Below are positions 6,821 through 53,848 of a DNA stretch of 64,000 nt, piece after piece; the stretch's first letter is position 1, and each line of letters opens with the position of its first letter. The notes beneath the pieces are model-generated. The model did no database searches and had not been told where the DNA came from. It was given only the letters and a program-made list of their open reading frames with translations. This stretch comes from an archaeon GW2011_AR10 (GTDB lineage Archaea > Iainarchaeota > Iainarchaeia > Iainarchaeales > GW2011-AR10), in NCBI GenBank assembly GCA_000830275.1, contig CP010424.1, positions 815,311 to 879,310 on the forward strand, written 5' to 3'. A program made the translations under genes and the position numbers.

Positions 6821-9229
6821 ATGGCAGATAACGGACCTGATTTTAAGGCAATTGAGGCAAAATGGCAGAGAAACTGGGAGAAAAACAGGCTTTACAAGTT
6901 TGACCCAAATGCAAAAGGAAGCATTTACTCTGTTGATACTCCCCCGCCAACCGTTTCCGGGAGAATGCATTTAGGGCACGCGTTTTCCTACACGCAGGCA
7001 GACTTCATTGTAAGGTACAAGAGAATGAGGGGATTCAGCATATTCTATCCTTTTGGCTGGGATGATAATGGGCTTGCAACTGAAAGGCTCGTGGAAAAGA
7101 ACAGGAAAATCCGGGCAAAAGATTTCACGAGAAAAGAGTTCATACGAATTTGCCTTGAGGAAACAAGGAAAGTTGAAGAGCAGCTTTTTGAAGACTTCAG
7201 CTCGCTGGGTTTAAGCGTTGACTGGAGCATAACCTATAGGACAATCGATGAATTGGCAAGAAAAATTGCGCAGACAAGCTTCCTTGACCTGCACAAAAAG
7301 GGGCGAGTTTATCAGAAGGAAGCACCGAGCATGTGGTGCCCAACGTGTGAAACTGCAATTGCCCAAGCCGAACTTGAAGACAGGGAACTTGAAAGCGCTT
7401 TCAACGACATTTACTTTGAGATTGAAAGCGGCGAAAAAATAGTTATTGCAACAACAAGGCCAGAGCTGCTGCCTGCATGCGTTGCAGTTTTTGTGCACCC
7501 AACAGATGAAAGGTACAAAAAGATTGTCGGAAAAAAAGCAAAGGTGCCATTGTTTAACCAGCTGGTTCAGATTTTAACAGATGAAAGGGCAGATCCAAGC
7601 AAGGGAACAGGCATAGTGATGTGCTGCACTTTCGGTGACCAAACAGACATGGAGTGGTATTACGCGCACAAGCTGCCATTAAAGGAGGCAATAACAAAGG
7701 ATGGAAGGATGAGTGAACTGGCAGGAAAATTCAAGGGAAAGCGAATAACTGAAGCAAGGAAAGAAATCCTAGAGGAACTGAAAATAGCTGGGCTGCTTGC
7801 AAAGCAGAAAAAAATCGTTCACTCGGTGAACGTTCATGAGAGGTGCAAGACCGAGGTGGAAATAATCCACACCAAGCAGTGGTTCGTGAAATACCTTGAC
7901 CTCAAGGAAGAATTCATTGTCAAAGCAGAGGAAATCAGGTGGTTTCCAAAGCACATGAAAGTAAGGTATGACAACTGGATTAAGGGGCTGCAGTGGGACT
8001 GGAGTATTTCAAGGCAGAGGTTTTTTGGAGTGCCTTTCCCAGTATGGTACTGCAAGAAGTGCGGCAACATAATCTTGGCAGAGGAAAAAGCGCTTCCTGT
8101 TGATCCTCTGCAGGATAAGCCAAGCAAAAAATGCAGGTGCGGAAGCAACGAGTTTGAAGCCGAAAAAGATGTTATGGACACATGGTTTACTTCCTCGCTT
8201 ACACCACAAATCAATGGAAAGTGGACTGTTGATGAAAAGCTGTTTAAGAAACTTTACCCAATGAGTTTGAGGCCGCAAGCACACGATATTATCACTTTGT
8301 GGGCATTCAACACAATCGTGAAAGGATTGTTCCATCAGGGCAGGATTCCCTGGAAAGACATAATGATTTCTGGGCATGCACTTGATCCAAAGGGAAGGAA
8401 GATGAGCAAAAGTTTGGGAAACGCAGTTGACCCTGTTGGAATGATTGAGAAGTACAGTGCTGACAGCCTCCGCTACTGGGCTGCAGCAGCCTCTCTGGGG
8501 GAAGATTTGCCGTTCCAAGAAAAAGAAATGGTTGCAGGAAAAAAGTTTGCCACAAAGCTGTTCAACGCAAGCTGGTTTGTTGAAGCTGCAACAAAAGACT
8601 TTTACTTGGGCAAATCGGATGAGAAAAAGCTTGAGTTTAAAGTTCTGGACAGATGGATTTTAAGCAGGCTAAACAAAGTAAAGAAAGAGGCAGAACAAGG
8701 TTTTGAGCGCTACGAGTTTGCACCTGCGCTTAATGCGGCCAGAAACTTTTTCTGGCTTGAGTTTGCCGATTATTACATTGAGGAGATAAAGCACCGGGTT
8801 TACAATAAAAAGGATTCAAGCAGGAAAGCAGCACAGTACACTTTGCTTAAAGTTTTGCTGGATATAGTGAAGATTGTTGCCCCGATAATGCCTCACTTGG
8901 CTGAGGAAATAATGAATTCAAGTTTCAAAAATTACCTGAAGGAAAAAAGCGTTCACTTGGAGGAATGGCCAGTGGCAGAGGAAAGATGGGTTGATGAAAA
9001 ATCTGAAAAGGCTGCTTTGGCAATTAATAATGTGATCTCTAAAATCAGGAAGTTCAAGAGCCAGAACAGCATAGCCTTGAACAGGGAAGTAAGCAAAGCA
9101 GTCGTAATCGCTGGAAAAGACGATTTGGCAAGTCTGAAGGAAAACCTTGAAGAAATCAGGAAAATAATGTTTGTGAAAGAAATTGAAGTAAGGCAGGGAA
9201 AAGAGTTTTCGGTTGAAGTAAAGGCTTAG
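6821..9229 (+). CDS. valS: Class I aminoacyl-tRNA synthetase, most consistent with valyl-tRNA synthetase (short, 802 aa).
   Basis: PPPTVSGRMHLGHA (HIGH motif) followed by IVRYKRMRG, and KMSKSLGN. A size below 900 aa argues against IleRS and LeuRS. Confidence 0.75.
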   Translation: MADNGPDFKAIEAKWQRNWEKNRLYKFDPNAKGSIYSVDTPPPTVSGRMHLGHAFSYTQADFIVRYKRMRGFSIFYPFGWDDNGLATERLVEKNRKIRAKDFTRKEFIRICLEETRKVEEQLFEDFSSLGLSVDWSITYRTIDELARKIAQTSFLDLHKKGRVYQKEAPSMWCPTCETAIAQAELEDRELESAFNDIYFEIESGEKIVIATTRPELLPACVAVFVHPTDERYKKIVGKKAKVPLFNQLVQILTDERADPSKGTGIVMCCTFGDQTDMEWYYAHKLPLKEAITKDGRMSELAGKFKGKRITEARKEILEELKIAGLLAKQKKIVHSVNVHERCKTEVEIIHTKQWFVKYLDLKEEFIVKAEEIRWFPKHMKVRYDNWIKGLQWDWSISRQRFFGVPFPVWYCKKCGNIILAEEKALPVDPLQDKPSKKCRCGSNEFEAEKDVMDTWFTSSLTPQINGKWTVDEKLFKKLYPMSLRPQAHDIITLWAFNTIVKGLFHQGRIPWKDIMISGHALDPKGRKMSKSLGNAVDPVGMIEKYSADSLRYWAAAASLGEDLPFQEKEMVAGKKFATKLFNASWFVEAATKDFYLGKSDEKKLEFKVLDRWILSRLNKVKKEAEQGFERYEFAPALNAARNFFWLEFADYYIEEIKHRVYNKKDSSRKAAQYTLLKVLLDIVKIVAPIMPHLAEEIMNSSFKNYLKEKSVHLEEWPVAEERWVDEKSEKAALAINNVISKIRKFKSQNSIALNREVSKAVVIAGKDDLASLKENLEEIRKIMFVKEIEVRQGKEFSVEVKA

Positions 9230-9293
9230 CTGGCAGAAGGCACGTGCAGAAGCTTTAAATATTAAAATATCTTTGATTAATAGGGGTTTTTCC

Positions 9294-9836
9294 ATGAAGA
9301 GGTTTCTCCTGATTATTGCAGTTTTGGTGTTGGTTATAATTGTTGCGACGGGCTTTTTTTCAAGGCTGCAAGCAGACCCTATTGCGGAGTTCAAAGCAGT
9401 TGAGGAAAAGTTTGGGTTAAGCGGGGAAAAGATTGTGCCAGCAAGCGCTGGAGAACTTTCAGATTACAAGAAAGAATTGCTGGAACTGAGGGCGCGCTTC
9501 AGGGGCCAGAAAGATTTGGATCTGCTTGTTTCAATGAAACTTGACTTGGTTGAAATGGAGCAGTCGCTCCTTGAAGTGCAGCAGGAATTCAGCAGGGTTG
9601 ACAGGCTTAACCCTGACTGTTCAAGCGAAGGAAGAATTGCAAAAATCAGGGATTTAATTGAGAATGCTAAGGCAAAGGCCGGGCTTGCACTAAACAAGCG
9701 AACGCTTTTCCTATCTGATTATGGGCAGCAGGCAAACCAGCTGGAGTCAATTAACTGGCAGGGTTTTGAGGACACAGTTAACGGGGTAATGCTCGGCGCG
9801 GAATCAATTCAAACAATTATTAACTCTTATTGTTAG
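9294..9836 (+). CDS. Hypothetical protein (180 aa) with an N-terminal membrane anchor.
   Basis: Start moved to the ATG (MKRFLLIIAVLVLVIIV...), preceded by AGGGG. Single N-terminal TM helix, then a charged domain. Confidence 0.45.
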   Translation: MKRFLLIIAVLVLVIIVATGFFSRLQADPIAEFKAVEEKFGLSGEKIVPASAGELSDYKKELLELRARFRGQKDLDLLVSMKLDLVEMEQSLLEVQQEFSRVDRLNPDCSSEGRIAKIRDLIENAKAKAGLALNKRTLFLSDYGQQANQLESINWQGFEDTVNGVMLGAESIQTIINSYC

Positions 9837-9847
9837 AAAAAATTCTT

Positions 9848-10462
9848 ATGGAAAAAGAAAAGCTCATCCAGCGGGGAGCGGAAGCTGAACTGTTTGAATG
9901 CGAGTATTTTGGGAGAAAAGCAGTAGCAAAAAGAAGAGTGCCAAAAACCTACAGGAACAGCCAAATTGACGAGAAAATCAGAAGGCTGAGGACAAAAGAG
10001 GAGTGCCTGCTTCTCCAGAAAGCAAAGCAGCTCGGAGTGAGAACCCCAATCATGTACAGGGTAGACAGAAAGAACTGCGAAATTTTAATGGAATTCATTG
10101 AAGGGGAAAAGCTTCGGGACAAGTTGAACAAAAAAAATTTCCAGGAATATTGCAGGAGAACAGGAGAAAACATTGGAAGAATGCATAAAGCAAATCTTAT
10201 TCATGGTGACCTGACAACAAGCAATATTCTTATACATAACGATTTTTTGGTTTTTGTGGATTTTGGTTTGGGTTTCAATTCAGCAAAAGTTGAGGACAAA
10301 GCAGTTGATTTGCTTGCTTTCAAGAAAACATTTATGGCGACTCACTTTGACATTGCCGATGGGTGGAAAATGGTGCTGGAAGGGTATGAAAGCGCTTACT
10401 CGGAAGGAAAAGCCGCTGCAAGGCAAATTCCAGTAATTGAGGGAAGGGCCAGATACTCCTAG
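9848..10462 (+). CDS. bud32: KEOPS kinase/ATPase Bud32 (Rio-like small kinase).
   Basis: 204 aa. Glycine loop GAEAEL, catalytic HGDLTTSNIL, DFGL. Start set to the internal ATG (MEKEKLIQRGAEA). Confidence 0.7.
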   Translation: MEKEKLIQRGAEAELFECEYFGRKAVAKRRVPKTYRNSQIDEKIRRLRTKEECLLLQKAKQLGVRTPIMYRVDRKNCEILMEFIEGEKLRDKLNKKNFQEYCRRTGENIGRMHKANLIHGDLTTSNILIHNDFLVFVDFGLGFNSAKVEDKAVDLLAFKKTFMATHFDIADGWKMVLEGYESAYSEGKAAARQIPVIEGRARYS

Positions 10463-10598
10463 CCTATTGAACAAGCTTAAAGGCCATTGCACCTTTTTGG
10501 GTTGGTGAAACCTATTTAAAGGTATCGTAAGGGGAGTTAGTTAAAGCAGATTTTATTTTTTTGCTTTTCCATTCCGGAAGGGTGGAAAGGTGGTTTAA

Positions 10599-11108
10599 TT
10601 GAAGAAATCCGAAGAAAAAAAGCCAAGTAGCACTGCAGGCACTGCTAAGGCAAGGAAAAAAGAAGCTAAGGAAGTAGAGGGCAAACCAAAAAAGAAAGCA
10701 AGTGTAGCTAAGCAGGTTTTCGACTTCGTAGAGTATGGGCCGAAAGAAATAGAAGAGGCCATAATCAATTTAGCCAATTCAGGGTATACACCCTCCCAGA
10801 TAGGGATGGTTTTAAGGGACCAATACGGCGTGCCAAGTGTAACCAAGGTAGCTGGAGAAAAAATCGAGGAAATACTTGCAAGGCACAAACTTTTGGGCGA
10901 TACCCCAAGAGACCTCCTTAACCTGATTGAGAAATCCGTCAGGCTGCAAAAGCACCTGAAGGAAAACAAAAAAGATTTTACTGCAAAAAGAGGTTACCAA
11001 CTTTCAGTCAGCAAAATCAGGCGACTTGTAAACTATTACCATAGGGCCGGAAAGCTTTCAAAGGAATGGCGGTATACTCCTGAGAGAGCAGCATTGCTAA
11101 TAAAGTAG
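10599..11108 (+). CDS. rps15: Ribosomal protein S15P/S13e.
   Basis: C-terminal region matches the S13e/S15P family (GYTPSQIGMVLRDQYGVPSV...RLVNYYHRAGKL). Apparent TTG start with GGTGG upstream. The N-terminus carries a lysine-rich extension. Confidence 0.7.
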   Translation: MKKSEEKKPSSTAGTAKARKKEAKEVEGKPKKKASVAKQVFDFVEYGPKEIEEAIINLANSGYTPSQIGMVLRDQYGVPSVTKVAGEKIEEILARHKLLGDTPRDLLNLIEKSVRLQKHLKENKKDFTAKRGYQLSVSKIRRLVNYYHRAGKLSKEWRYTPERAALLIK

Positions 11109-11117
11109 CGTGATACG

Positions 11118-11234
11118 ATGAGATTTGAGTACAACTTAATATTTGAGGGAAAAAAGTTTGAAAACAGCGGGAACAAACAGGTTATGGAGCTAGTTGATGA
11201 ACTCAACAGGCTGATTGATAAAAGCAGGAAGTGA
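11118..11234 (+). CDS. Small ORF (38 aa, MRFEYNLIFEGKKFENSGNKQVMELVDELNRLIDKSRK) between the two ribosomal protein genes; unannotated micro-protein candidate.
   Basis: ATG ORF that exactly fills the S15-S3Ae intergenic gap. Its stop overlaps the GTG upstream of the S3Ae ATG. No family recognised. Confidence 0.2.
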   Translation: MRFEYNLIFEGKKFENSGNKQVMELVDELNRLIDKSRK

Positions 11235-11239
11235 CTGGA

Positions 11240-11863
11240 ATGGCCGAGAAAGAAAGCAAAAAACCAGAACAAGTGCAGAAAAAAGCAATAGTCAAAAAAA
11301 GAACGGTTGACAAGTGGAAGAAAAAAGTATGGTTCAATGTATTTGCTCCAAAGGAGTTTGAAAGAAAAGAAATAGGGACAACAATTTCAGAAAAACCAGA
11401 ATCCGTTGTGGGAAGAAAAATTGAGATTAGTGTGAGAGACCTTGCTGGGCAGCCGAAAGGACAGCATGTAAGCATTTTATTTAAAATTGTGGAAGTGAAA
11501 GGAAACAAGGCCTATGCCGATGCATTTGGACACACGATTAGGGAAAGTTATCTCAGAAAATTCACGGGCAGAAGAAGCAGCAAAGTGGAAACCGTGCAGT
11601 TGGTTTCAACAAAAGACAATGCAAGCTTGAAAGTTAAGACTATTTGTCTTACCGGAAGAAAAGTTGACAGGAAAAAAGAAAAGGCGATAAGAAAAATTAT
11701 TGAATCTGAAATAAGCAGTGTTGCCAAGCAAACGCAGTTAGCAGATATTGTCTCTGACTTGGTGTTTGGGAACCTGCCCCAAAAAATTTTAAGCAAAGTA
11801 AAAAAGGTTTCTCCAATCAAAAGAATCGAAATAGTGAAGTCGAGGTTAATCTCTAAAAAGTGA
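11240..11863 (+). CDS. rps3ae: Ribosomal protein S3Ae (S1e).
   Basis: KKKVWFNVFAPKEF...GRKIEISVRDL, typical of S3Ae. Start moved to the ATG (MAEKESKK). Confidence 0.8.
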   Translation: MAEKESKKPEQVQKKAIVKKRTVDKWKKKVWFNVFAPKEFERKEIGTTISEKPESVVGRKIEISVRDLAGQPKGQHVSILFKIVEVKGNKAYADAFGHTIRESYLRKFTGRRSSKVETVQLVSTKDNASLKVKTICLTGRKVDRKKEKAIRKIIESEISSVAKQTQLADIVSDLVFGNLPQKILSKVKKVSPIKRIEIVKSRLISKK

Positions 11864-11867
11864 TTGA

Positions 11868-12542
11868 ATGGATTTTGGCATTGAAGTCGCCTTACTCTTA
11901 TTGCTGCTAGCGCTCTTCTCTGCTGTCTCATTTTACAAGAAGACAATAAGCAACACCGGCATTTTGGTTGGAAACATTGTGGGGCTGGTTGTTTTCTTTC
12001 TTGGAGGCCTACAAAGCTTTGTGGCACTCGCGGCATTATTTGCAGTTGCAGAAATAACCACTTTTTATTCGAGGTTAAAGCTGAAAGAAAAACACGAGCA
12101 GCGTACCACCTCAAACATTATCGGCAACTCCGGGGCAGCACTAATTGTACTGCTGCTTGGGTTTCAGCAAGCATTCTTTGGTGCGATAGCTGCTGCACTG
12201 GCTGACACAACCGCTGGCGAAATAGGCATGCTCTCAAAGAAAAAGCCAAGGCTGATCACCACATTGAGGCGGGTTGAAACCGGCACTGATGGGGCCATCA
12301 CTTTGCTGGGCTTAATCACAGGTTTTTTTGGGGGATTAGCAATTGGAAGCATTTACTTATTTTTTTCAGGAGATATTAAGGGGTTCGCTTTTATTACAGT
12401 TGCAGGAATTGTGGGAAATGTTGTTGACAGCTTAATTGGAGCAGTTTTTGAGAGAAGGAAACTGCTCAACAACTCTCAGGTTAATTTTCTGGCAGGCTTA
12501 AGCGGCGCCATAACCGTGCTGGTTCTTTCCGCTATGTTTTAA
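11868..12542 (+). CDS. Polytopic membrane protein (224 aa; possibly DUF92/TMEM19-like).
   Basis: Five to six hydrophobic helices with G-rich loops. The family assignment is uncertain. Confidence 0.35.
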   Translation: MDFGIEVALLLLLLALFSAVSFYKKTISNTGILVGNIVGLVVFFLGGLQSFVALAALFAVAEITTFYSRLKLKEKHEQRTTSNIIGNSGAALIVLLLGFQQAFFGAIAAALADTTAGEIGMLSKKKPRLITTLRRVETGTDGAITLLGLITGFFGGLAIGSIYLFFSGDIKGFAFITVAGIVGNVVDSLIGAVFERRKLLNNSQVNFLAGLSGAITVLVLSAMF

Positions 12543-14497: not shown

Positions 14498-14534
14498 CAG
14501 CCTCCCCGCACTAATTCCGTCAACGGAACAAAAG

Positions 14535-17272: not shown

Positions 17273-17566
17273 TTTTATTCACTAAAAAGGAGTCTTATAA
17301 ACTCGGATATATAGTAAAAGACTCCATTATTTTTACAACATATCGTCTTTTACATATAGCAAGTGAGCAATAAAGGTTTAATTATTAATGTCATTTGCCA
17401 TAATATAAATTTAAGGGGAATCCTTTAAATTAATTTCTAACTTATTTTAGTTGGTTAGGTCTCAATTAGACTAAAACCACCCATTAAAATAGGCGGGAAT
17501 TTGTTAGGTGCCAAAAACCATCGAATGAATTCGGGGGCATACTTTGATGCTTCATACTGTGCTAAT

Positions 17567-17636
17567 GGTTTTTGACAGCAATGAATTCCACCAATAAACC
17601 ACTATTTAAAAATAGTGGAATTCATATGATTTAAAG
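17567..17636 (+). repeat. Conserved about 70-nt intergenic element, copy X: GGTTTTTGACAG...GAATTCCAC...(nested hairpin)...GTGGAATTC...GATTTAAA.
   Basis: Shares its flanks and hairpin architecture with copy Y at 33385..33449. The inner stem sequences differ but stay complementary. Confidence 0.5.
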
Positions 17637-17744
17637 TGGGTTGAACTACCCACGGAGGCACCATAAAATGACCTGTTTTTATTGCACTGAGGCAAAATCG
17701 TAACTTAATTTTTCTTTAAGGCCTTAATTTTTGGAGGGATTGCA

Positions 17745-22500: not shown

Positions 22501-22987
22501 AGACCAGTATACCGGCATAAACTTCACTCATGGCACGGATGACTTTGCGGAAGGCCCAAAAGTGTCAAACTATGTAAGGCTGAAAACAATGGAGGAGAAA
22601 ATCAACAGGCAGGCAAAGCTTCAGGGAAAAATAAGGGCTGTAGAGAAAAAGGACGCATTGGAAAGGGTCCTGGTTTCGCATTTTTTGCCTGACATAATAG
22701 GGAATGCTCGCGCCTTCAGCAGGCAGAACTTCAGGTGCACCAACTGCAATGCAAAGCACAGAAGAATTCCATTGAACGGAAAATGCTCCAAGTGCGGGAA
22801 AGAAAGCATTATACTGACGATTGCCCACGGCTCGGTAATAAAATACCTCAAGATTGCAAAGGAAATAACCAATTCGTACAACCTGAGCAATTATTTGAAG
22901 CAGCGTATCGACTTAATAGAAAAAGAAGTTTCAAGCATTTTCACCGACAAGAAAACAGGGCAAAAAAGCCTGTCCGAATTCGCATGA
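19565..22987 (+). CDS. polD2: DNA polymerase D large subunit DP2, with no intein.
   Basis: 1140 aa. Cys-cluster zinc fingers (CNFCGK...CNECNK, CPKCSK...CSSCGS; C-terminal CTNCNAKHRR...CSKCGK), typical of DP2. Confidence 0.9.
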   Translation: MNTQTIIADPEIQEYYKKIIDSVSNQFNVAKDARKKGKDISAEVECLPTMDLADRTENIIGPKGVAKRYREVYTELKGDRIKTIFKLFKEIIEEKWCHIPDAQKRLEQAVKTSLVLLTEGVVVAPLDGVPSVRISKNLDGTKYVDIYFAGPIRAAGGTATVFPLILGDYAKTLLGLDRYKPTEDEVERYVEEVATYDEIVSRQYKLSAEEVRKIVRGCPVCINGEPTEDRMVTAFKDLERIPSNKVRGGMCLVISEGIGLKAMKTLSLAKSLGLDWSWLEGIIKISKGGEKGESIQPNYKYLTRIAAGRPIFSYPSKIGGFRLRYGRGRNTGIMGKAVHPATMHLLDEFIAVGTQLKVERPGKSAEVFPCDSIDGPIVKLVNGDVRQVNSYKEAIELSEKVKEILFLGDMLVSIGDFRKTAHPLMPAGYCPEWWLLDLEKAVKKQGKAPNIDLEKIRAAPNKVGPFNAVEFSLEYGIPLHPRYVHFYKALEANELQALIEESRKAEKAFKETKIVSAVFPNKENIKLLLEKICLPHRVSSKWIEIGEEFAYPFLKTMGAFTEGKIEEKEDVLETLTEISGLKIMDKCGTFIGTRMGRPEAAKPRKMVGNPHVLFPIGLAGGPTRSINKAMEKSGDGYTKGIKVEVALFKCNFCGKVLPQAYCNECNKPAEKAFRCPKCSKTASSTKCSSCGSETNAFSERNIDLDSIVGLSLENMKMKMPEIVKGVKGLINSEKTPEPIEKGILRAVYDLHIFRDATIRYEMLNAPLTHFKAREISTSVQKLRELGYAHDINGKPLEKEDQLLELFPQDIIVNENTIEFIYRTTKFVDDELEKFYGLAPFYKLKAKEEVIGQLVLGLAPHTSAAVIGRVIGYTQAMVCFAHPFYHLTKRRNADGDQDSIMLLMDALLNFSTHYLPSTRGGRMDAPLVFTIALNPTEIDDEAYEIETCTAYPLELYEKSQDFVPPDFESIPKVALKLGKKDQYTGINFTHGTDDFAEGPKVSNYVRLKTMEEKINRQAKLQGKIRAVEKKDALERVLVSHFLPDIIGNARAFSRQNFRCTNCNAKHRRIPLNGKCSKCGKESIILTIAHGSVIKYLKIAKEITNSYNLSNYLKQRIDLIEKEVSSIFTDKKTGQKSLSEFA

Positions 22988-23040
22988 CGTCCTCCCATTC
23001 CTAAAGGTAGGGGCTTACAAACATTTACAAAAAGGACGTC
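22986..23040 (+). repeat. About 55-nt inverted-repeat element, copy A (GACGTCCTCC...CCTAAAGG...CAAACATTTA...GGACGTC), beginning inside the TGA stop of polD2 and followed by CCGTCAACGGAA.
   Basis: Homologous to copy B at 52541..52591, which begins at the TGA stop of the pgi-like gene. A partial CCGTCAACGGAA also occurs at 14519. Confidence 0.5.
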
Positions 23041-23109
23041 TCTTATCCGTCAACGGAAAAAATCCACAAAAAAAACCAACTTCCGTTAGGGAGTGGATTT
23101 TTTGGGTTG

Positions 23110-24433: not shown

Positions 24434-25642
24434 TTGTATGTTGAAAATATTTTTGAAAAAGAGTTTGCTCGCAATACTGTTTTCATTGACCAAAACCTCC
24501 TAAGCCCGCACTACACCCCTAAAGAACTGCCTTTCCGGGAAGCACAAATAAAGGAAATTGGTTCTGCTCTTGCAAAAACAATCAAGGGCAGGAAAGCAGA
24601 CAACATTTTCATTTACGGAAAAACAGGCACTGGAAAAACCTGCGTAACGCGCTATGCGATACAACAGCTGCTTGATTTCTCGAAAGCAAAGAACCTGCCG
24701 GTCAACGGTGCATATGTTAACTGCAGAACCCATAACAGCAAATACAGGGTGTTGATTAAAATGGTGAAAGATTTCTATCCAGACGAGAACTTTCTGGGTT
24801 TTTCAGCTGCATTCGTTTACGAAAAACTTGTTGATTACGTCAACCAAGGAAAACAGCTAGTGATAGTGCTTGATGAAATAGACAAAATAAAGGACTTGGA
24901 CGAGTTGGTGTACTCTCTTACAAGAGGCAACGATGAAGTGCAAAAAGGCGGCATATCTGTTATAGGCATAAGCAACAACCTGATGTTCAAGGATCGACTT
25001 GACCCGAGAACAAAAAGCAGTTTATGCGAGCAGGAAATGATTTTTCCGCCTTACAATGCACCAGAGTTGCGGGAAATACTGAAACAGCGCGCTGAAAAAG
25101 CATTCAAAAAAGGAGTTGTAGATGAGTCAGCAATCAATCTCTCTGCTGCAATAGCTGCACAGGAATCAGGAGATGCGAGAACTGCGCTAATGCTGCTGCT
25201 TCGCGCAGGAGAAATCGCTGACAGAAAGAACATGGAAGAAGTAACAGATGCAGAAGTGAAAAAAGCAAAAAGCAAAGTGGAAGAAGAAATAATTCTGAAC
25301 ATGATAAGCACCCTCCCACAACAACAACAACTTGTGTTGTACGCAATTTCAAGCCTCAGCATAAACAAGAACGGAATCAGAAAGCTTACTGGGCAAATTG
25401 AGGAAGGAGTGTTCTTTTCCGGGGATATCTACGAGGAATACAAAAAAATGGCCAAGAGAATCAAGGAAGAGGTTGTTTCAGCAAGATGGTACAGGCAGTA
25501 CATAAGCGAGCTGGAAATGTATGGCCTGATAGTTTCAACTGCTTCAGGAAAAGGGATCAAAGGCCAGACAAGGCTGATAAAGCTCGGCTTCGACGCAGGC
25601 AAAGTACACGACGTAATAGAAAAAGAACTTATGTATAATTAA
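24434..25642 (+). CDS. cdc6: Orc1/Cdc6 replication initiator (AAA+ plus winged helix).
   Basis: Walker A YGKTGTGKT, Walker B VLDEID, and an LPFREAQI start region. TTG start preceded by AAGGGG. Confidence 0.85.
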   Translation: MYVENIFEKEFARNTVFIDQNLLSPHYTPKELPFREAQIKEIGSALAKTIKGRKADNIFIYGKTGTGKTCVTRYAIQQLLDFSKAKNLPVNGAYVNCRTHNSKYRVLIKMVKDFYPDENFLGFSAAFVYEKLVDYVNQGKQLVIVLDEIDKIKDLDELVYSLTRGNDEVQKGGISVIGISNNLMFKDRLDPRTKSSLCEQEMIFPPYNAPELREILKQRAEKAFKKGVVDESAINLSAAIAAQESGDARTALMLLLRAGEIADRKNMEEVTDAEVKKAKSKVEEEIILNMISTLPQQQQLVLYAISSLSINKNGIRKLTGQIEEGVFFSGDIYEEYKKMAKRIKEEVVSARWYRQYISELEMYGLIVSTASGKGIKGQTRLIKLGFDAGKVHDVIEKELMYN

Positions 25643-31278: not shown

Positions 31279-31302
31279 ATATAACTATAGCTATAGTTAT
31301 AT
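31279..31302. promoter_or_regulatory. Perfect 24-nt palindrome ATATAACTATAGCTATAGTTATAT, 12 nt upstream of the vapB2 ATG; putative autoregulatory operator and promoter.
   Basis: Read directly. Palindromic operators overlapping TA promoters are the norm for VapB antitoxins. Confidence 0.45.
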
Positions 31303-33289: not shown

Positions 33290-33384
33290 TGTGGAGCGCC
33301 TGCGTTTTAGTTCCTGCTCGCCTGTCAAAAACCGACAAATGAATTGGGCAGCATATTAATGAAACTGAAGCATACATTTTTAGC

Positions 33385-33449
33385 GGTTTTTGACAGTAGT
33401 AATTCCACCTAACCACCGTTCGAAAACGGTGGAATTACCTGATTTAAAA
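33385..33449 (+). repeat. Conserved intergenic element, copy Y: GGTTTTTGACAG...AATTCCACC..CCACCGTTCGAAAACGGTGG..GGAATT...GATTTAAA.
   Basis: See copy X. Lies upstream of the FKBP gene in a divergent intergenic region. Confidence 0.5.
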
Positions 33450-35165: not shown

Positions 35166-37061
35166 ATGGACTACTTGAAGGAAACAAAGGAAGCAATTCA
35201 GAGCTACCTTCCAAGCGACACTGAAATAACAAGCGTTGAACTGGAAGGACCTGAAATAGCCATTTACACAAAGAATCCGAGGGCATTCTTTGAGAACGAA
35301 AACTACGTGGCAAAGATTGCATTCAACTTAAAGAAAAGAATAAATATCAGAACAGACAAGAGCCTGTTGATCCCTGAGGAAAAAGCAAAAAAGAAAATAG
35401 AGGAAATAGTGCCACAGGAAGCTCAAATAAAGGAAATAATGTTCAATGCCACTTTCAGCGAGGTAGTTATTGAGGCAATAAAGCCCGGCCTAGTCATTGG
35501 AAAAGGCGGTGAAACAAGCAAAAAAATCATTCTTGAAACAGGGTGGGTGCCAAACATTATCAGGGCGCCAACACAGGACAGCGAGATACTGAAAGGAATA
35601 CGGCATCATTTGCACAAGTACAGCGCGGACAGGAAGAAAATTCTGCAGGAAACATCAAAACAAATTTATGGAGAGAAACCAAACCTTGACAGCTGGGCTA
35701 GGCTGACTGCTTTAGGAAGCTTTAGAGAGGTTGGAAGAAGCTGCATTCTAGTGGAAACCCGCGACACCAAAGTAATGCTTGACTGCGGCATAAATGTTGC
35801 AACGTATGAAGATCCATTCCCTTACCTTGATGCAATCCGCTTTCCGATAAACGAATTGGATGCACTGGTTATAAGCCACGCGCACTTAGACCACTCGGGG
35901 TTTGCCCCTTATTTGTTTAAGCTTGGATATAAAGGCCCGGTTTATGTGACTGAACCAACCCGCGACCTTATGTGCTTGCTGCAGTTTGACTACGTTGACG
36001 TTTTGACGAAAGAGGGAAGGGAGCCGCCTTACACTGAAAGAGATGTCAAGGAACAGTTAAAGCACTGCATTACAAGGAATTATAGAGAGGTAACAGACAT
36101 TGCTCCTGACATGAGGCTGACATTCCACAATGCAGCGCACATTCTTGGAAGCGCTTCAGTGCACTTGCACATTGGAGAAGGAGGCCATAACCTGGTTTAC
36201 AGTGCGGACATAAAATATGGTTTTACAAGGCTGTTTGACCCGGTTGACATAAATTATCCAAGGCTTGAAACGCTCATCCTTGAAAGCACTTACGGAGCAC
36301 AGGATGATATTCAACCGCAGAGGCAGGAAGCAGAGGAACAGCTTGTTAAAGTAATCAATGAAACAGTGAAGCAGGGCGGCAACGTGCTTATACCTGTTTT
36401 TGCTGTTGGAAGAGCACAGGAAATAATGCTTGTAATTGAAAATGCTTACAGGAAAGGAACCCTTGACCAGAACACAAAGGCGTACATTGATGGAATGACG
36501 AAGGAAGCATCAGCAATACACACTGCTTACCCTGAGTACCTTAGGAAAAGCGTTCAGAGGAGAGTGCTGCAGAATGACTCGCCTTTCACTTCTGAATTGT
36601 TCCAGGAAGCCGATTACAGTAAAAGAGAGGAAATAATTCAGAATGGTGGAAGCGTAATTGTTGCATCCTCTGGAATGCTTACAGGTGGGCCAAGCGTGTA
36701 CTACTTGTATCAGCTTGCAGAAAACCCGAGGAATTCCCTCATATTTGTTGGATACCAGGGAGAAGGAAGCATTGGAAGAAAAATTCAGGGCGGCGTAAGA
36801 AGCCTGCCTATAACAGCAGGCAACGGCAAAACCAAGGACTTAAAGCTTAACCTGAAGGTTGAAACAGTTGAAGGTTTTTCAGGCCACTCTGACAGGCCCC
36901 AGCTTGTAAGCTATGTTAGGGACCTGAAACCAAAGCCAAAAAGAATTCTTGTAAACCACGGCGACAAGATTAAATGCATAGAGTTCAGCAAATTCTTGTC
37001 CAGCAGGTTCAGAATCAATGCCAATTCAATCAGAAACCTTGATGCAATCAGGCTGAAATAG
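35166..37061 (+). CDS. aCPSF1 (KH domains plus metallo-beta-lactamase/beta-CASP ribonuclease).
   Basis: 631 aa. HAHLDHSG motif, N-terminal KH region, beta-CASP C-terminus. Confidence 0.85.
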   Translation: MDYLKETKEAIQSYLPSDTEITSVELEGPEIAIYTKNPRAFFENENYVAKIAFNLKKRINIRTDKSLLIPEEKAKKKIEEIVPQEAQIKEIMFNATFSEVVIEAIKPGLVIGKGGETSKKIILETGWVPNIIRAPTQDSEILKGIRHHLHKYSADRKKILQETSKQIYGEKPNLDSWARLTALGSFREVGRSCILVETRDTKVMLDCGINVATYEDPFPYLDAIRFPINELDALVISHAHLDHSGFAPYLFKLGYKGPVYVTEPTRDLMCLLQFDYVDVLTKEGREPPYTERDVKEQLKHCITRNYREVTDIAPDMRLTFHNAAHILGSASVHLHIGEGGHNLVYSADIKYGFTRLFDPVDINYPRLETLILESTYGAQDDIQPQRQEAEEQLVKVINETVKQGGNVLIPVFAVGRAQEIMLVIENAYRKGTLDQNTKAYIDGMTKEASAIHTAYPEYLRKSVQRRVLQNDSPFTSELFQEADYSKREEIIQNGGSVIVASSGMLTGGPSVYYLYQLAENPRNSLIFVGYQGEGSIGRKIQGGVRSLPITAGNGKTKDLKLNLKVETVEGFSGHSDRPQLVSYVRDLKPKPKRILVNHGDKIKCIEFSKFLSSRFRINANSIRNLDAIRLK

Positions 37062-45970: not shown

Positions 45971-46028
45971 GCTTAAGACTACATAACGAAAATGGTTTAA
46001 AATTCTATGCACATGGCAAACAGCTTTG

Positions 46029-46290
46029 ATTTTTGAGCATTAATTCTGTTTGCTAAATGCAAAATGCAATTTTTTTAGCAAAAGACATTAGTTTTGGTAA
46101 TTTCTTAATGTCTTTTGCGACTATAGCAAACAGCCAATATTTTTGAACTTTATACTGCTGTTTGCTAGATGCAAAACGCAGTTTCAATGTTCAATTACTT
46201 AAGCGTTTTGCTATAGCGAATGACTTGTTTTCTACCATTATTAAAGTCATTCGCTATTTGTTCAAATACATAAGCGTTTTGCTATATATT
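46029..46290. repeat. Repeat-dense intergenic region. Two copies of an about 45-nt direct repeat (46029-46075 and 46138-46185). At least six TTTGCTA/TAGCAAA motifs in both orientations. An 11-bp inverted repeat AGCGAATGACT/AGTCATTCGCT (46214-46258). AAGCGTTTTGCTATA occurs twice.
   Basis: Read directly. Lies between the divergent taw1 and the PRC-barrel gene. Confidence 0.5.
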
Positions 46291-51661: not shown

Positions 51662-51663
51662 CA

Positions 51664-51701
51664 ATGGAACAGCAAAAACAATAAATAAGTAACATTTTTG
51701 C
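51664..51701 (-). promoter_or_regulatory. 38-nt promoter module abutting the pgk ATG. Read on the gene strand: CAAAAATGTTACTTATTTATTGTTTTTGCTGTTCCATT.
   Basis: 37 of 38 identical to the module upstream of gap (53811..53848). Contains a TATA-like TTATTTATT. The pgi upstream region shares TTATT...GCTGTTTCCA. Confidence 0.55.
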
Positions 51702-51786: not shown

Positions 51787-52542
51787 ATGGCTGAACTGAG
51801 GGAAAAAAGCGGCCTTCCACTGAAACTCGAAGGGAACAAACTTGTTTTCGGGAAACCATTAAAGCAGGTTAAGGCAGAAGCAAGAACATTAGAGCAAATG
51901 AAACCTGTTCTGCTTGAGCCAAACGCAAAGGCTTCGCAAGAACTCTATTTCATGTACCGAAATGTCTGCCTCGAAAAGCACAGGAAAAAAATTGAAGAGA
52001 ATGGGTTGAGGTATGATTTGACCGTAATTCCTCCTGCAACAATCGGAAAAGAATTCATTAAAACAATGGGGCACTTTCACCCAAATGTTCCCAGCACTTC
52101 AGTTGCTTTTCCGGAAGTTTACGAGGTGCTGCACGGAGCAGCGCACTACTTGCTCCAGAAAAAAGATGGAAGCGATGCAGTTGTTTTGAAAGCAGTTACA
52201 GGAGAAAAGGCTTTGATTCCTCCAAGTTACGGTCACATTACAATTAATGCGGGAAAGGAAACATTGGTTATGAGCAACTGGGTTTCAATGAGCTTTTCAT
52301 CAGAGTACGGAGCAATAAAGGAAAAGCATGGAGGAATGTACTTTGAGACAGTTAATGGCTGGGTTAAAAACAATAATTATTCAAGCGTTCCGAAGCTGAG
52401 GGAAGTTAAAGCAAAAAATGTTGAAATTTTTGGCTTGATTAAAAATAAGCCAATGTATTTTTTGGCTGAAGAAATTGAAAAACTTGAGTTCCTAAACAAA
52501 CCGCAGAATTACTTGGAAGTTTTTGAAAAATATTTGAAATGA
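51787..52542 (+). CDS. pgi: Cupin-type phosphoglucose isomerase (cPGI).
   Basis: IGKEFIKTMGHFHP...EVYEVLHGAAHYLLQ and ALIPPSYGHITINAG align with Pyrococcus/Thermococcus cupin PGI (GKEFFFTKGHFHA...EVYVAL.G...LLQ, VPPYWAHRTVN). Confidence 0.65.
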   Translation: MAELREKSGLPLKLEGNKLVFGKPLKQVKAEARTLEQMKPVLLEPNAKASQELYFMYRNVCLEKHRKKIEENGLRYDLTVIPPATIGKEFIKTMGHFHPNVPSTSVAFPEVYEVLHGAAHYLLQKKDGSDAVVLKAVTGEKALIPPSYGHITINAGKETLVMSNWVSMSFSSEYGAIKEKHGGMYFETVNGWVKNNNYSSVPKLREVKAKNVEIFGLIKNKPMYFLAEEIEKLEFLNKPQNYLEVFEKYLK

Positions 52543-52591
52543 CGTCCTCCACTGCCTAAAGGCAGAGGTATCCCAACATTTAATGGACGTC
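52541..52591 (+). repeat. Copy B of the stop-codon-abutting inverted-repeat element (GACGTCCTCCACTGCCTAAAGGCAGAGG...CAACATTTAATGGACGTC).
   Basis: Begins within the TGA of pgi and is followed by CCGTCAACGCAA. See copy A. Confidence 0.5.
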
Positions 52592-52606
52592 ATGAACCCG
52601 TCAACG

Positions 52607-52660
52607 CAACACTTTGTCAAAAAGAAAACAGGTGTTTTTATTTCACTTGACAAAGTGTTG
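52607..52660. terminator. 14-bp perfect inverted repeat CAACACTTTGTCAA-N26-TTGACAAAGTGTTG between the convergent pgi and gap; candidate bidirectional terminator hairpin.
   Basis: Read directly; the loop contains a T-run. Confidence 0.4.
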
Positions 52661-53810: not shown

Positions 53811-53848
53811 AATGGAACAGCAAAAACAATAAATAGGTAACATTTTTG
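53811..53848 (-). promoter_or_regulatory. Second copy of the 38-nt glycolytic promoter module, about 75 nt upstream of the gap ATG.
   Basis: AATGGAACAGCAAAAACAATAAATAGGTAACATTTTTG on the plus strand; 37 of 38 identical to the pgk copy. Confidence 0.55.

Follow-up and report, generated by a model that had tools for sequence, protein, structure and literature searches.

The stretch of DNA analysed here (hereafter the window) is a 64,000-nt segment of contig CP010424.1 of the archaeon GW2011_AR10 (AR10). Two copies, X (17508–17635) and Y (33322–33448), of a repeated element lie in it, each in a divergent intergenic region, X upstream of a UPF0147 gene and Y upstream of an FKBP gene. Around X, the SecD-SecF / UPF0147-DP1-DP2-...-Cdc6 gene order is kept in four relatives (DP1 59–63% identical), and the small subunit of the AR10 DNA polymerase has its nearest homologues at only ~50–63% identity. 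The initial annotation had described the repeat as a structured unit of ~70 nt, bounded by a 5′ box (GGTTTTTGACAG) and a 3′ box (GATTTAAA) and located upstream of these two genes. The repeat is real, with both boxes in place in X and Y and further copies in other genomes, but the element is larger, reaching ~60 nt further 5′. The added segment holds the 5′ arm of an inverted repeat to which GGTTTTTGACAG contributes the 3′ arm. The complete element comprises two perfect hairpins and a TATA-like end box in roughly 95–150 bases. We identified 11 distinct copies, all intergenic or overlapping open reading frame (ORF) ends only, and saw the element in no organisms other than a few DPANN archaea from the Iainarchaeota/Diapherotrites group.

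In all 11 copies, three parts follow each other in a fixed order: inverted repeat 1 (IR1), inverted repeat 2 (IR2) and the box GATTTAAA. IR1 is an 11–12 bp stem of near-invariant sequence (TGTCAAAAACC/GGTTTTTGACA) around a loop of 3–57 nt; its sequence is near-identical between genomes, and its TGTC/GACA ends are invariant across them. A linker of 1–3 nt (15 nt in copy L035a) leads to IR2, a continuous stem of 9–13 bp around AATTCC/GGAATT, the loop of which (6–29 nt) is A-rich and usually contains TTAAAAA. The box follows after 0–2 nt and is present in every copy, with the variant GATTTTAA in L035b. Only the IR1 loop and the 5′ half of IR2 vary in length. The box, called box 2 below, stands equally far from the IR2 loop in each of the 11 copies, and 18–22 nt separate the A-run of the loop from GATTT in the seven copies measured. 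Both IR1 arms and the AATTCC/GGAATT core are conserved in sequence, beyond pairing alone. X and Y are 75% identical across ~200 aligned columns, IR1 loop included, and the exact 12-mer GGTTTTTGACAG occurs three times in 64 kb, the third time as its reverse complement at 33322–33333. Between subfamilies the IR1 loops are unrelated: one loop type is common to X, Y and L163, and another to L030 and L052, which belong to different metagenome-assembled genomes (MAGs).

Pairing within the stems is almost purely of the Watson–Crick type (119 of 132 positions in IR1 and 127 of 133 in IR2). The arms of IR1 in X pair at 10 of 12 positions, with mismatches at arm positions 1 and 4, one of which is an internal C·A. 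On the plus strand, the internal exceptions amount to one G·T (L016) and three A·C (X IR1, Z IR2 and L163 IR2), and an assignment of the strand from G·U versus A·C exceptions was dropped, as the counts were too few. The outer stems proposed in the initial annotation are present, with 11 bp in each window copy, except that the additional GG/CC pairs suggested for Y do not exist, the 5′ side reading AG. The inner hairpins that it had placed inside these stems (CACTATTT/AAATAGTG in X and CCACCGTT/AACGGTGG in Y) can indeed pair; however, they reuse the GTG/GGTGG of the outer 3′ arm, so that each copy can form either the full outer stem or the inner hairpin, and not one nested in the other. A duplicated CCAC/CCACC on the 5′ side makes both pairings possible, and the long outer stem is the minimum-energy fold in RNAfold.

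The covariation that had been proposed for the stems was confirmed in IR2, whereas the IR1 stems are invariant and therefore uninformative. In IR2, 84–86% of cells were paired in a MAFFT alignment and a model-based alignment, and 8 of the 13 pairs change on both sides, for example by A-U/G-C/C-G/U-A exchanges flanking the core and by changes of CCAC/GTGG to CAAC/GTTG or CCGC/GCGG. The covariation score of 0.371 was matched by none of 500 shuffles and fell three-fold, to at most 0.116, when the partner was slid by 1–3 columns. An IR2 covariance model detected X (E=1e-13) and Y (E=2.5e-7), with the rest of the window at noise even when the filters were off, and it recovered all ten copies at E≤1.6e-6. 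In 10 of the 11 copies the full element folds at an energy 3.2–6.9 standard deviations below that of dinucleotide shuffles (z −3.2 to −6.9). IR2 thus has pairs kept by compensatory changes, the generic mark of a structured non-coding RNA.

Table 1. Parts of copies X and Y (window coordinates) and gene starts on the box 2 side of the copies.
Feature	Coordinates	Strand	Remarks
X IR1 5′ arm, GTGCCAAAAACC	17508–17519	+	holds A5 run, T5 on minus strand
X IR1 loop, 47 nt	17520–17566	+	copy-variable; homologous to Y loop (AATGAATT..GGG..GCATA...CATAC)
X IR1 3′ arm, GGTTTTTGACAG	17567–17578	+	holds T5 run; 5′ box of the initial annotation
X IR2 5′ arm, ATGAATTCCAC	17581–17591	+	pairs with 17615–17625, 11 bp
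X IR2 loop	17592–17614	+	second CCAC; TATA-like TTTAAAAA at 17605–17612 (box 1)
X IR2 3′ arm, GTGGAATTCAT	17615–17625	+
X box 2, GATTTAAA	17628–17635	+	right-hand end of element; 3′ box of the initial annotation
Y IR1 5′ arm, CTGTCAAAAACC	33322–33333	+	perfect 12/12 pairing; 32 nt from ATG of divergent gene (33289)
Y IR1 loop, 51 nt	33334–33384	+
Y IR1 3′ arm, GGTTTTTGACAG	33385–33396	+
Y IR2 5′ arm, GTAATTCCACC	33399–33409	+	pairs with 33428–33438, 11 bp
Y IR2 loop	33410–33427	+	second CCACC; no TATA-like sequence (TTCGAAAA)
Y IR2 3′ arm, GGTGGAATTAC	33428–33438	+
Y box 2, GATTTAAA	33441–33448	+	followed by AA
Start downstream of X			UPF0147 (PF03685)/PolD, 109 nt from box end
Start downstream of Y			FKBP (PF00254), 77 nt from box end
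Start downstream of Z			L7Ae-S28e-L24e operon, 95 nt from box end; divergent region
Start downstream of L035a			TBP (by eye), 20 nt from box end
Start downstream of L163			possible PHP-type protein (by eye), 28 nt from box end
Further downstream starts			TrmB-like regulator (by eye), about 70 nt; 69-aa membrane protein, about 66 nt from box end
Downstream of L016			intron-containing tRNA, Rfam-confirmed; 5′ end 31 nt past box

Covarying stems that fold far better than shuffles would be explained by a self-contained small RNA gene, an alternative that we consider rather unlikely in either of its versions. On the minus strand, box 2 read as TTTAAATC would be the TATA box, and the transcript would start 28–31 nt on, at a T-to-A step in the IR2 loop, run through the variable segment and UGGAAUU and end in the U5 of the IR1 hairpin after about 45–95 nt. 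On the plus strand, the product would be a two-hairpin RNA transcribed from further upstream, or lying within a 3′ untranslated region or a leader. Conserved stems with loops of 3–57 nt suit hairpins better than duplex binding sites, the constant position of box 2 relative to the IR2 loop fits a built-in promoter, and a self-contained gene would account for divergent, tandem and convergent contexts alike. The three internal A·C positions would moreover become G·U in a minus-strand RNA, against one internal G·T (L016), although this strand evidence of 3 to 1 is not significant. Neither version is free of difficulties. The minus-strand transcript would not contain the whole of IR2, whose covariation would thus be left unexplained; for a plus-strand transcript, space or a TATA is lacking upstream of IR1 in several copies: Y begins close to the divergent ATG, and L097 and L016 abut a stop codon. 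TATA-like boxes were seen by eye upstream of IR1 in about half of the copies. G·U pairs are nearly absent from IR2 (1 in 133), which is unusual for a strand-specific RNA. A known Rfam family, which the initial annotation had suggested looking for, was not found at any copy at gathering or relaxed thresholds: Rfam 15 gave no match in the window at gathering thresholds and only noise at E≤10 around X, no family was matched at the other copies, Z included, and the tRNA/tmRNA scans were empty at the element. Guide RNAs of the C/D-box or H/ACA type were rejected, since inspection by eye revealed no RUGAUGA/CUGA pair and no pocket-plus-ACA layout, and a small protein-coding ORF was rejected because the loop lengths differ by non-multiples of three and there is no common ORF.

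The search for further copies and the covariance model, both proposed in the initial annotation, extended the family well beyond the window. The third AR10 copy, Z (locus L248, 2241–2344), lies 10 kb upstream of the window start and ~25 kb upstream of X, giving three copies in about 74 kb; its IR1 3′ arm is a variant (GATTTTTGACAG) missed by the text pattern, and the copy was recovered by the IR2 covariance model. Eight more copies come from five or six other Iainarchaeota MAGs. A pattern scan of GTDB, with one genome per species, returned 99 hits, mostly chance matches in bacteria, and six of them had the whole architecture: L030, L035a, L052, L061 and L097 from four Diapherotrites/Iainarchaeum MAGs, and L016 from a small contig (2.8 kb) binned as Falkowbacteria, of the candidate phyla radiation (CPR). 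Given its copy of the element, the L016 contig may be a mis-binned archaeal one. L035b, the second copy in L035, was found via IR1 alone, and a metagenome scan added at least one new copy (L163), together with duplicates of Y and L030. One MAG, CG08, has three copies in 16 kb. In the viral collection IMG/VR, all 12 pattern hits lacked both IR1 and IR2 and were due to chance, and a viral or mobile origin was rejected on these grounds. The element was absent from the orthologous SecF/UPF0147 loci of four relatives and from the orthologous FKBP-proteasome-aCPSF1 locus of three, and the covariance model found no copy in these seven loci (~112 kb from five related genomes). Set against the copy densities in AR10 and CG08, this absence indicates that the element is sporadic and not a conserved part of these promoters; a conserved operon leader was rejected on the four UPF0147 loci.

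Such a distribution is what a selfish repeat would produce, either like the repetitive extragenic palindromes (REPs) and bacterial interspersed mosaic elements (BIMEs) or like miniature inverted-repeat transposable elements (MITEs), copied within and between genomes by a hairpin-recognising enzyme or by recombination, with any effects on transcription being incidental. The loop sequence common to X and Y, the L030/L052 loop subfamily that extends across MAGs and an IR1 that is near-identical across genomes whose kinship to AR10 may be distant are in keeping with this explanation, as are other hairpin-repeat families in AR10, one of which has copies that are 95–99% identical. A comparison of strains (L008/L009) revealed four single-nucleotide polymorphisms (SNPs), at 17527, 17542, 17553 and 17565, all within 39 nt of the X IR1 loop, while the remainder of the 470-nt X intergenic region was identical and the overall rate was 27 SNPs in 10 kb. 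This cluster resembles gene conversion, for which another copy could be the source; a mutational hot spot is the other possible cause. However, the ends of the element are not mutual inverted repeats, and no target-site duplication was seen. No transposase or RAYT gene was linked to any locus in a general scan within 5–10 kb that was not aimed at RAYT genes, the viral and mobile contigs gave chance hits only, exact copies were few per genome in the GTDB scan and no empty site was seen in the same species. We therefore regard a selfish repeat as doubtful, about as improbable as a small RNA gene, and note that it is compatible with the boundary function considered below, for which it would be a means of spreading. 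A MITE in the strict sense was rejected, because the left end (TGTCAAAAACC) is unrelated to the right end (GATTTAAA) and the flanks of 10 copies contain no duplication. Ends of the IS200/IS605 type and TnpB guide RNAs were rejected by inspection, as the hairpins differ and the left flanks share no common target motif.

The contexts of the copies are similarly diverse. On the GATTTAAA side, a same-strand gene start follows in 8 of 10 known contexts, and one copy runs into a contig end. The names TBP, TrmB-like and PHP-type in Table 1 are ones that we take from the sequences by eye, unchecked against Pfam. L035b and L061 face gene 3′ ends between convergent genes; one neighbour of L035b resembles an FtsZ gene, and the other is convergent. 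On the IR1 side, the neighbour is a divergent gene start in four of the 11 copies and the end of a co-directional gene in six. In three of these six (L097, L016 and L052) no more than 17 nt lie between the stop codon and the start of IR1, and the ORF of L061 extends into the element. The three AR10 copies all lie in long divergent intergenic regions. The tRNA of L016 (1365–1476, minus strand of the locus) was missed by ARAGORN and found by Rfam (53 bits), and neither program detected a tRNA gene in the window; ARAGORN may overlook intron-containing tRNAs in this lineage.

These contexts bear directly on the function proposed in the initial annotation, an operator just upstream of the B recognition element (BRE) and TATA box that would co-regulate the UPF0147 and FKBP genes; extended to all copies, it would control UPF0147/PolD, FKBP and other genes. 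The proximity of IR2 to a TATA-like box, the conservation in sequence of the IR1 arms and the IR2 core, and the compact form of IR1 in L097 and L035b (a palindrome of 11-bp arms with a 3–4 nt spacer, like a classical operator) would all suit a regulator. On the other hand, the orthologous promoters at four UPF0147 and three FKBP loci lack the element, the genes downstream of other copies are functionally unrelated (TBP, a TrmB-like regulator, L7Ae, a tRNA, a possible PHP-type protein and a small membrane protein), and the two copies between convergent genes have no downstream gene to regulate. The heat-shock operon GrpE-DnaK-DnaJ lies in the window without a copy; a heat-shock or chaperone regulon was rejected on this ground and on that of the element-free FKBP orthologs. 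Moreover, half-site spacings of 3–57 nt (IR1) and 6–29 nt (IR2) exceed the tolerance of a dimeric factor on B-DNA, and variable positions that would not be contacted still covary. A shared operator is thus very unlikely, the least probable of the explanations weighed here.

Two features of the element may point instead to transcription itself. The first is IR1. In all copies one of its arms has an A5 run and the opposite arm a T5 run, so that T5 is presented on both strands. Runs of T5 or more occur after most stop codons in this genome, and IR1, as judged by sequence, supplies what an oligo-T terminator calls for, namely five or more T in the transcribed strand close behind a gene. In archaea, U-tracts are described as a termination signal that acts together with aCPSF1 (PMC8716108). 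The aCPSF1 gene is encoded in the window at 35166–37061 and also in the three orthologous FKBP loci. An analogous A6/T6 repeat (AAAAAACT-N25-AGTTTTTT) stands directly before the TATA box of gene 46404, and in copy Z, IR1 starts 34 nt after an upstream multi-hairpin repeat.

The second feature is a pair of TATA-like boxes ~20–27 bp apart: box 1, within the IR2 loop, and box 2, which is GATTTAAA. Box 2, likened to an archaeal TATA element in the initial annotation, is indistinguishable from the TTTAAA/TTTATA boxes found 28–31 nt before many AR10 start codons; in at least five genes the first T of such a box lies at this distance from the ATG, which suggests leaderless mRNAs. In X, box 2 may serve either as a TATA box or as an initiator/AT-rich proximal promoter element. 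As TTTAAA is self-complementary, the spacing of the two boxes fits either assignment on either strand, and the copies divide. From the first T of box 2 the distance is 26 nt to the TTG start of TBP (L035a), 34 nt to the ATG in L163 and 37 nt to the 5′ end of the tRNA in L016; L016 and L163 fit box 2 better, whereas X and L035a fit box 1 better. The TTG of L035a is preceded by a Shine–Dalgarno sequence (GGAGAGGT) that would stay untranscribed from box 2, so that this copy points to box 1 as the TATA box.

In X, the choice involves a further structure, the hairpin GUGGGU-UGAACU-ACCCAC followed by GGAGG (17636–17658), directly after box 2. It is kept in the four element-free UPF0147 orthologs (L241 3510–3533, L242 5627–5650, L243 5606–5629 and L244 5644–5668). 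Across these five genomes, its hexaloop is invariant and its stem has compensatory and G·U changes, indicating a feature of RNA, which has to be transcribed. It sits 55–105 nt upstream of the UPF0147-PolD operon, with T5 ~40–48 nt downstream in four of the five genomes, has no match in Rfam and may represent a short leader, a small RNA or an attenuator. Box 1 of X (TTTAAAAA) lies 31 nt upstream of this hairpin, and the element-free L243 has a TTTAAA about 34 nt before the same hairpin.

On the basis of these features, we propose, tentatively, as the likeliest of the explanations but with clearly less than even confidence, that the element is a lineage-specific, dispersed and oriented transcription-boundary cassette, in which a hairpin terminator for either strand is joined to a core promoter embedded in a palindrome. 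Termination at IR1, initiation at IR2/TTTAAA and the choice of the box bound by TBP are all inferred. Through its A5...T5 palindrome, IR1 would confront RNA polymerase from either direction with an oligo-U/T5 stop in a stable hairpin, ending both read-through from the unit upstream and the divergent ‘upstream antisense’ transcript of symmetric archaeal TATA promoters. IR2 and GATTTAAA would form the core-promoter region, one TATA-like box being the TBP site and the other lying at or near the start site, and transcription would leave rightwards into the adjoining gene, tRNA or leader RNA. In X, with the IR2 loop as TATA, the leftward start would fall at the IR1/IR2 junction and yield an RNA made up of the IR1 hairpin, with U5 at its end. 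Symmetric TTTAAA boxes in Pyrococcus initiate transcription bidirectionally about 50 bp apart (PMC6640164), and such initiation would make an upstream terminator useful. The constant 18–22 nt between A-run and GATTT is as promoter geometry would require, and near-pure Watson–Crick pairing would be expected if both strands must fold.

Several observations weigh against this proposal. The IR2 loops of Y and L035b contain no TATA-like sequence, and the promoter assignment is not uniform, L035a and X favouring box 1 and L016 and L163 box 2. The genes next to X and Y have TATA-like boxes of their own 30–31 nt before the ATG, so the boxes of the element are not needed there, and the orthologous promoters function without the element. 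For L035b and L061, between convergent genes, a promoter would give antisense RNA only, and the orientation bias of 8 in 10 is not significant alone (binomial about 0.055). Finally, a promoter or an oligo-T terminator needs neither covarying stems of 11–13 bp nor invariant TGTC/GACA, and the cassette leaves the pairing of the IR2 arms, these invariant ends and the convergent copies unexplained. A small share of the probability stays with roles beyond those considered here.

The element belongs to no described family, its kin being extragenic palindromic repeats and promoter/terminator signals, and a search of the literature on Diapherotrites repeats returned nothing relevant. With bacterial REPs and BIMEs, which are multi-copy extragenic palindromes forming composite units, it shares an extragenic and multi-copy nature (11 copies), two different near-perfect palindromes in fixed order, several orientations and a sporadic occurrence. 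In contrast to them, it is archaeal, no GTAG-type 5′ motif was seen, copies seem scarce (no more than a few per 100 kb) and it ends in a TATA-like box with a bias towards gene starts, whereas REPs are mostly found in transcribed 3′ regions. The BRE-TATA-BRE promoters of Pyrococcus furiosus (PMC6640164) are similar in having a self-complementary TTTAAA at the centre of symmetry and opposite-strand starts ~50 bp apart, compared with ~55 bp predicted in X if the IR2 loop is the TATA box. In the element, known here from sequence alone, the symmetry reaches a covarying stem of 11–13 bp, and an A5/T5 hairpin stands on one side. Like oligo-U archaeal terminators and bidirectional intrinsic terminators of bacteria, IR1 would give a hairpin with U5 in a transcript of either strand; unlike them, it has its U-run inside the descending stem arm and not after the stem, its TGTC/GACA is invariant and four copies have no co-directional upstream gene. 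CIRCE operators are likewise inverted repeats near the promoters of chaperone genes, as Y is near that of FKBP, and repeats of this type can act as DNA and as RNA; the element differs in having no fixed spacer, in its absence from the DnaK operon and from orthologous chaperone genes and in its heterogeneous set of downstream genes. Origin recognition boxes (ORBs) occur as clusters of repeats on the flanks of an AT-rich unwinding element beside cdc6/orc1, and they contain a TCCA..GGAAA dyad and a G-string. An origin of this kind was rejected, as the copies are ≥7 kb from cdc6 (24434–25642), dispersed (16 kb apart in the window) and devoid of a G-string, with TTCCAC/GTGGAA halves separated by 18–29 nt.

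To our knowledge, almost nothing is established about how transcription is organised in DPANN archaea, whose genomes of about 1 Mb encode very few regulators. A conserved and portable cis-element would offer a concrete handle on this question, and the present one fronts housekeeping units (PolD, L7Ae with ribosomal proteins, TBP, a tRNA and FKBP). If it marks boundaries, it would bear on how harmful upstream antisense RNA from inherently bidirectional archaeal promoters is curbed; if it is a small RNA or a mobile repeat instead, it still represents a previously undescribed family restricted to Iainarchaeota. A bolder idea, to which we give little credence, is that the element and the other hairpin-repeat families of AR10 are the first REP/BIME-like system described in Archaea, in which a two-hairpin DNA element is spread by a hairpin-recognising enzyme and, in the streamlined genomes of DPANN archaea, has been domesticated as a portable and self-insulated promoter/terminator unit that rewires which operons are strongly expressed.

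Two other repeat families were noted. The second family occurs at 22986–23056 and 52541–52607, with a solo motif at 14517–14526, always between convergent genes. It begins exactly at the stop codon (aTGAcgtcc), consists of GACGTCC...GGACGTC around a small hairpin and continues, 6–7 nt after GGACGTC, with CCGTCAACG(G/C); given its placement between convergent genes, it may be a 3′-end or terminator element. The third family (window about 46016–46290 and L248 2027–2213, 95–99% identical over 110 + 74 nt) is an array of perfect hairpins of 9–13 bp (GCAAACAGC/GCTGTTTGC, GCAAAAGACATTA/TAATGTCTTTTGC and AGCGAATGACT/AGTCATTCGCT) with a long-range GCAAAATGC...GCGTTTTGC pairing that includes a U·G pair, and the window copy has an extra internal duplication. 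It has no match in Rfam and could be a structured RNA or a MITE.

In locus L242, the DNA polymerase II large subunit gene (7505–12376) contains an intein (Pfam Intein_splicing/LAGLIDADG), and the AR10 gene is without one. The leader of the L7Ae operon downstream of Z has a hairpin, UUGUUUUG-CCGAUGA-CAAAACAA (L248 2397–2419), which is preceded by a hairpin followed by U6 (2372–2392). The loop of the former hairpin contains a GAUGA that resembles a K-loop, a motif that would fit the known autoregulation of L7Ae. A 38-nt direct repeat (AATGGAACAGCAAAAACAATAAATA(A/G)GTAACATTTTTG; 51663–51700 and 53811–53848) is 97% identical between two promoter-like intergenic regions 2.1 kb apart. Lastly, a perfect 22-bp palindrome, TATAACTATAGCTATAGTTATA, at 31280–31301 overlaps the TATA region of a small antitoxin-like gene and PIN (VapC) pair, and it is likely to be an autoregulation operator.

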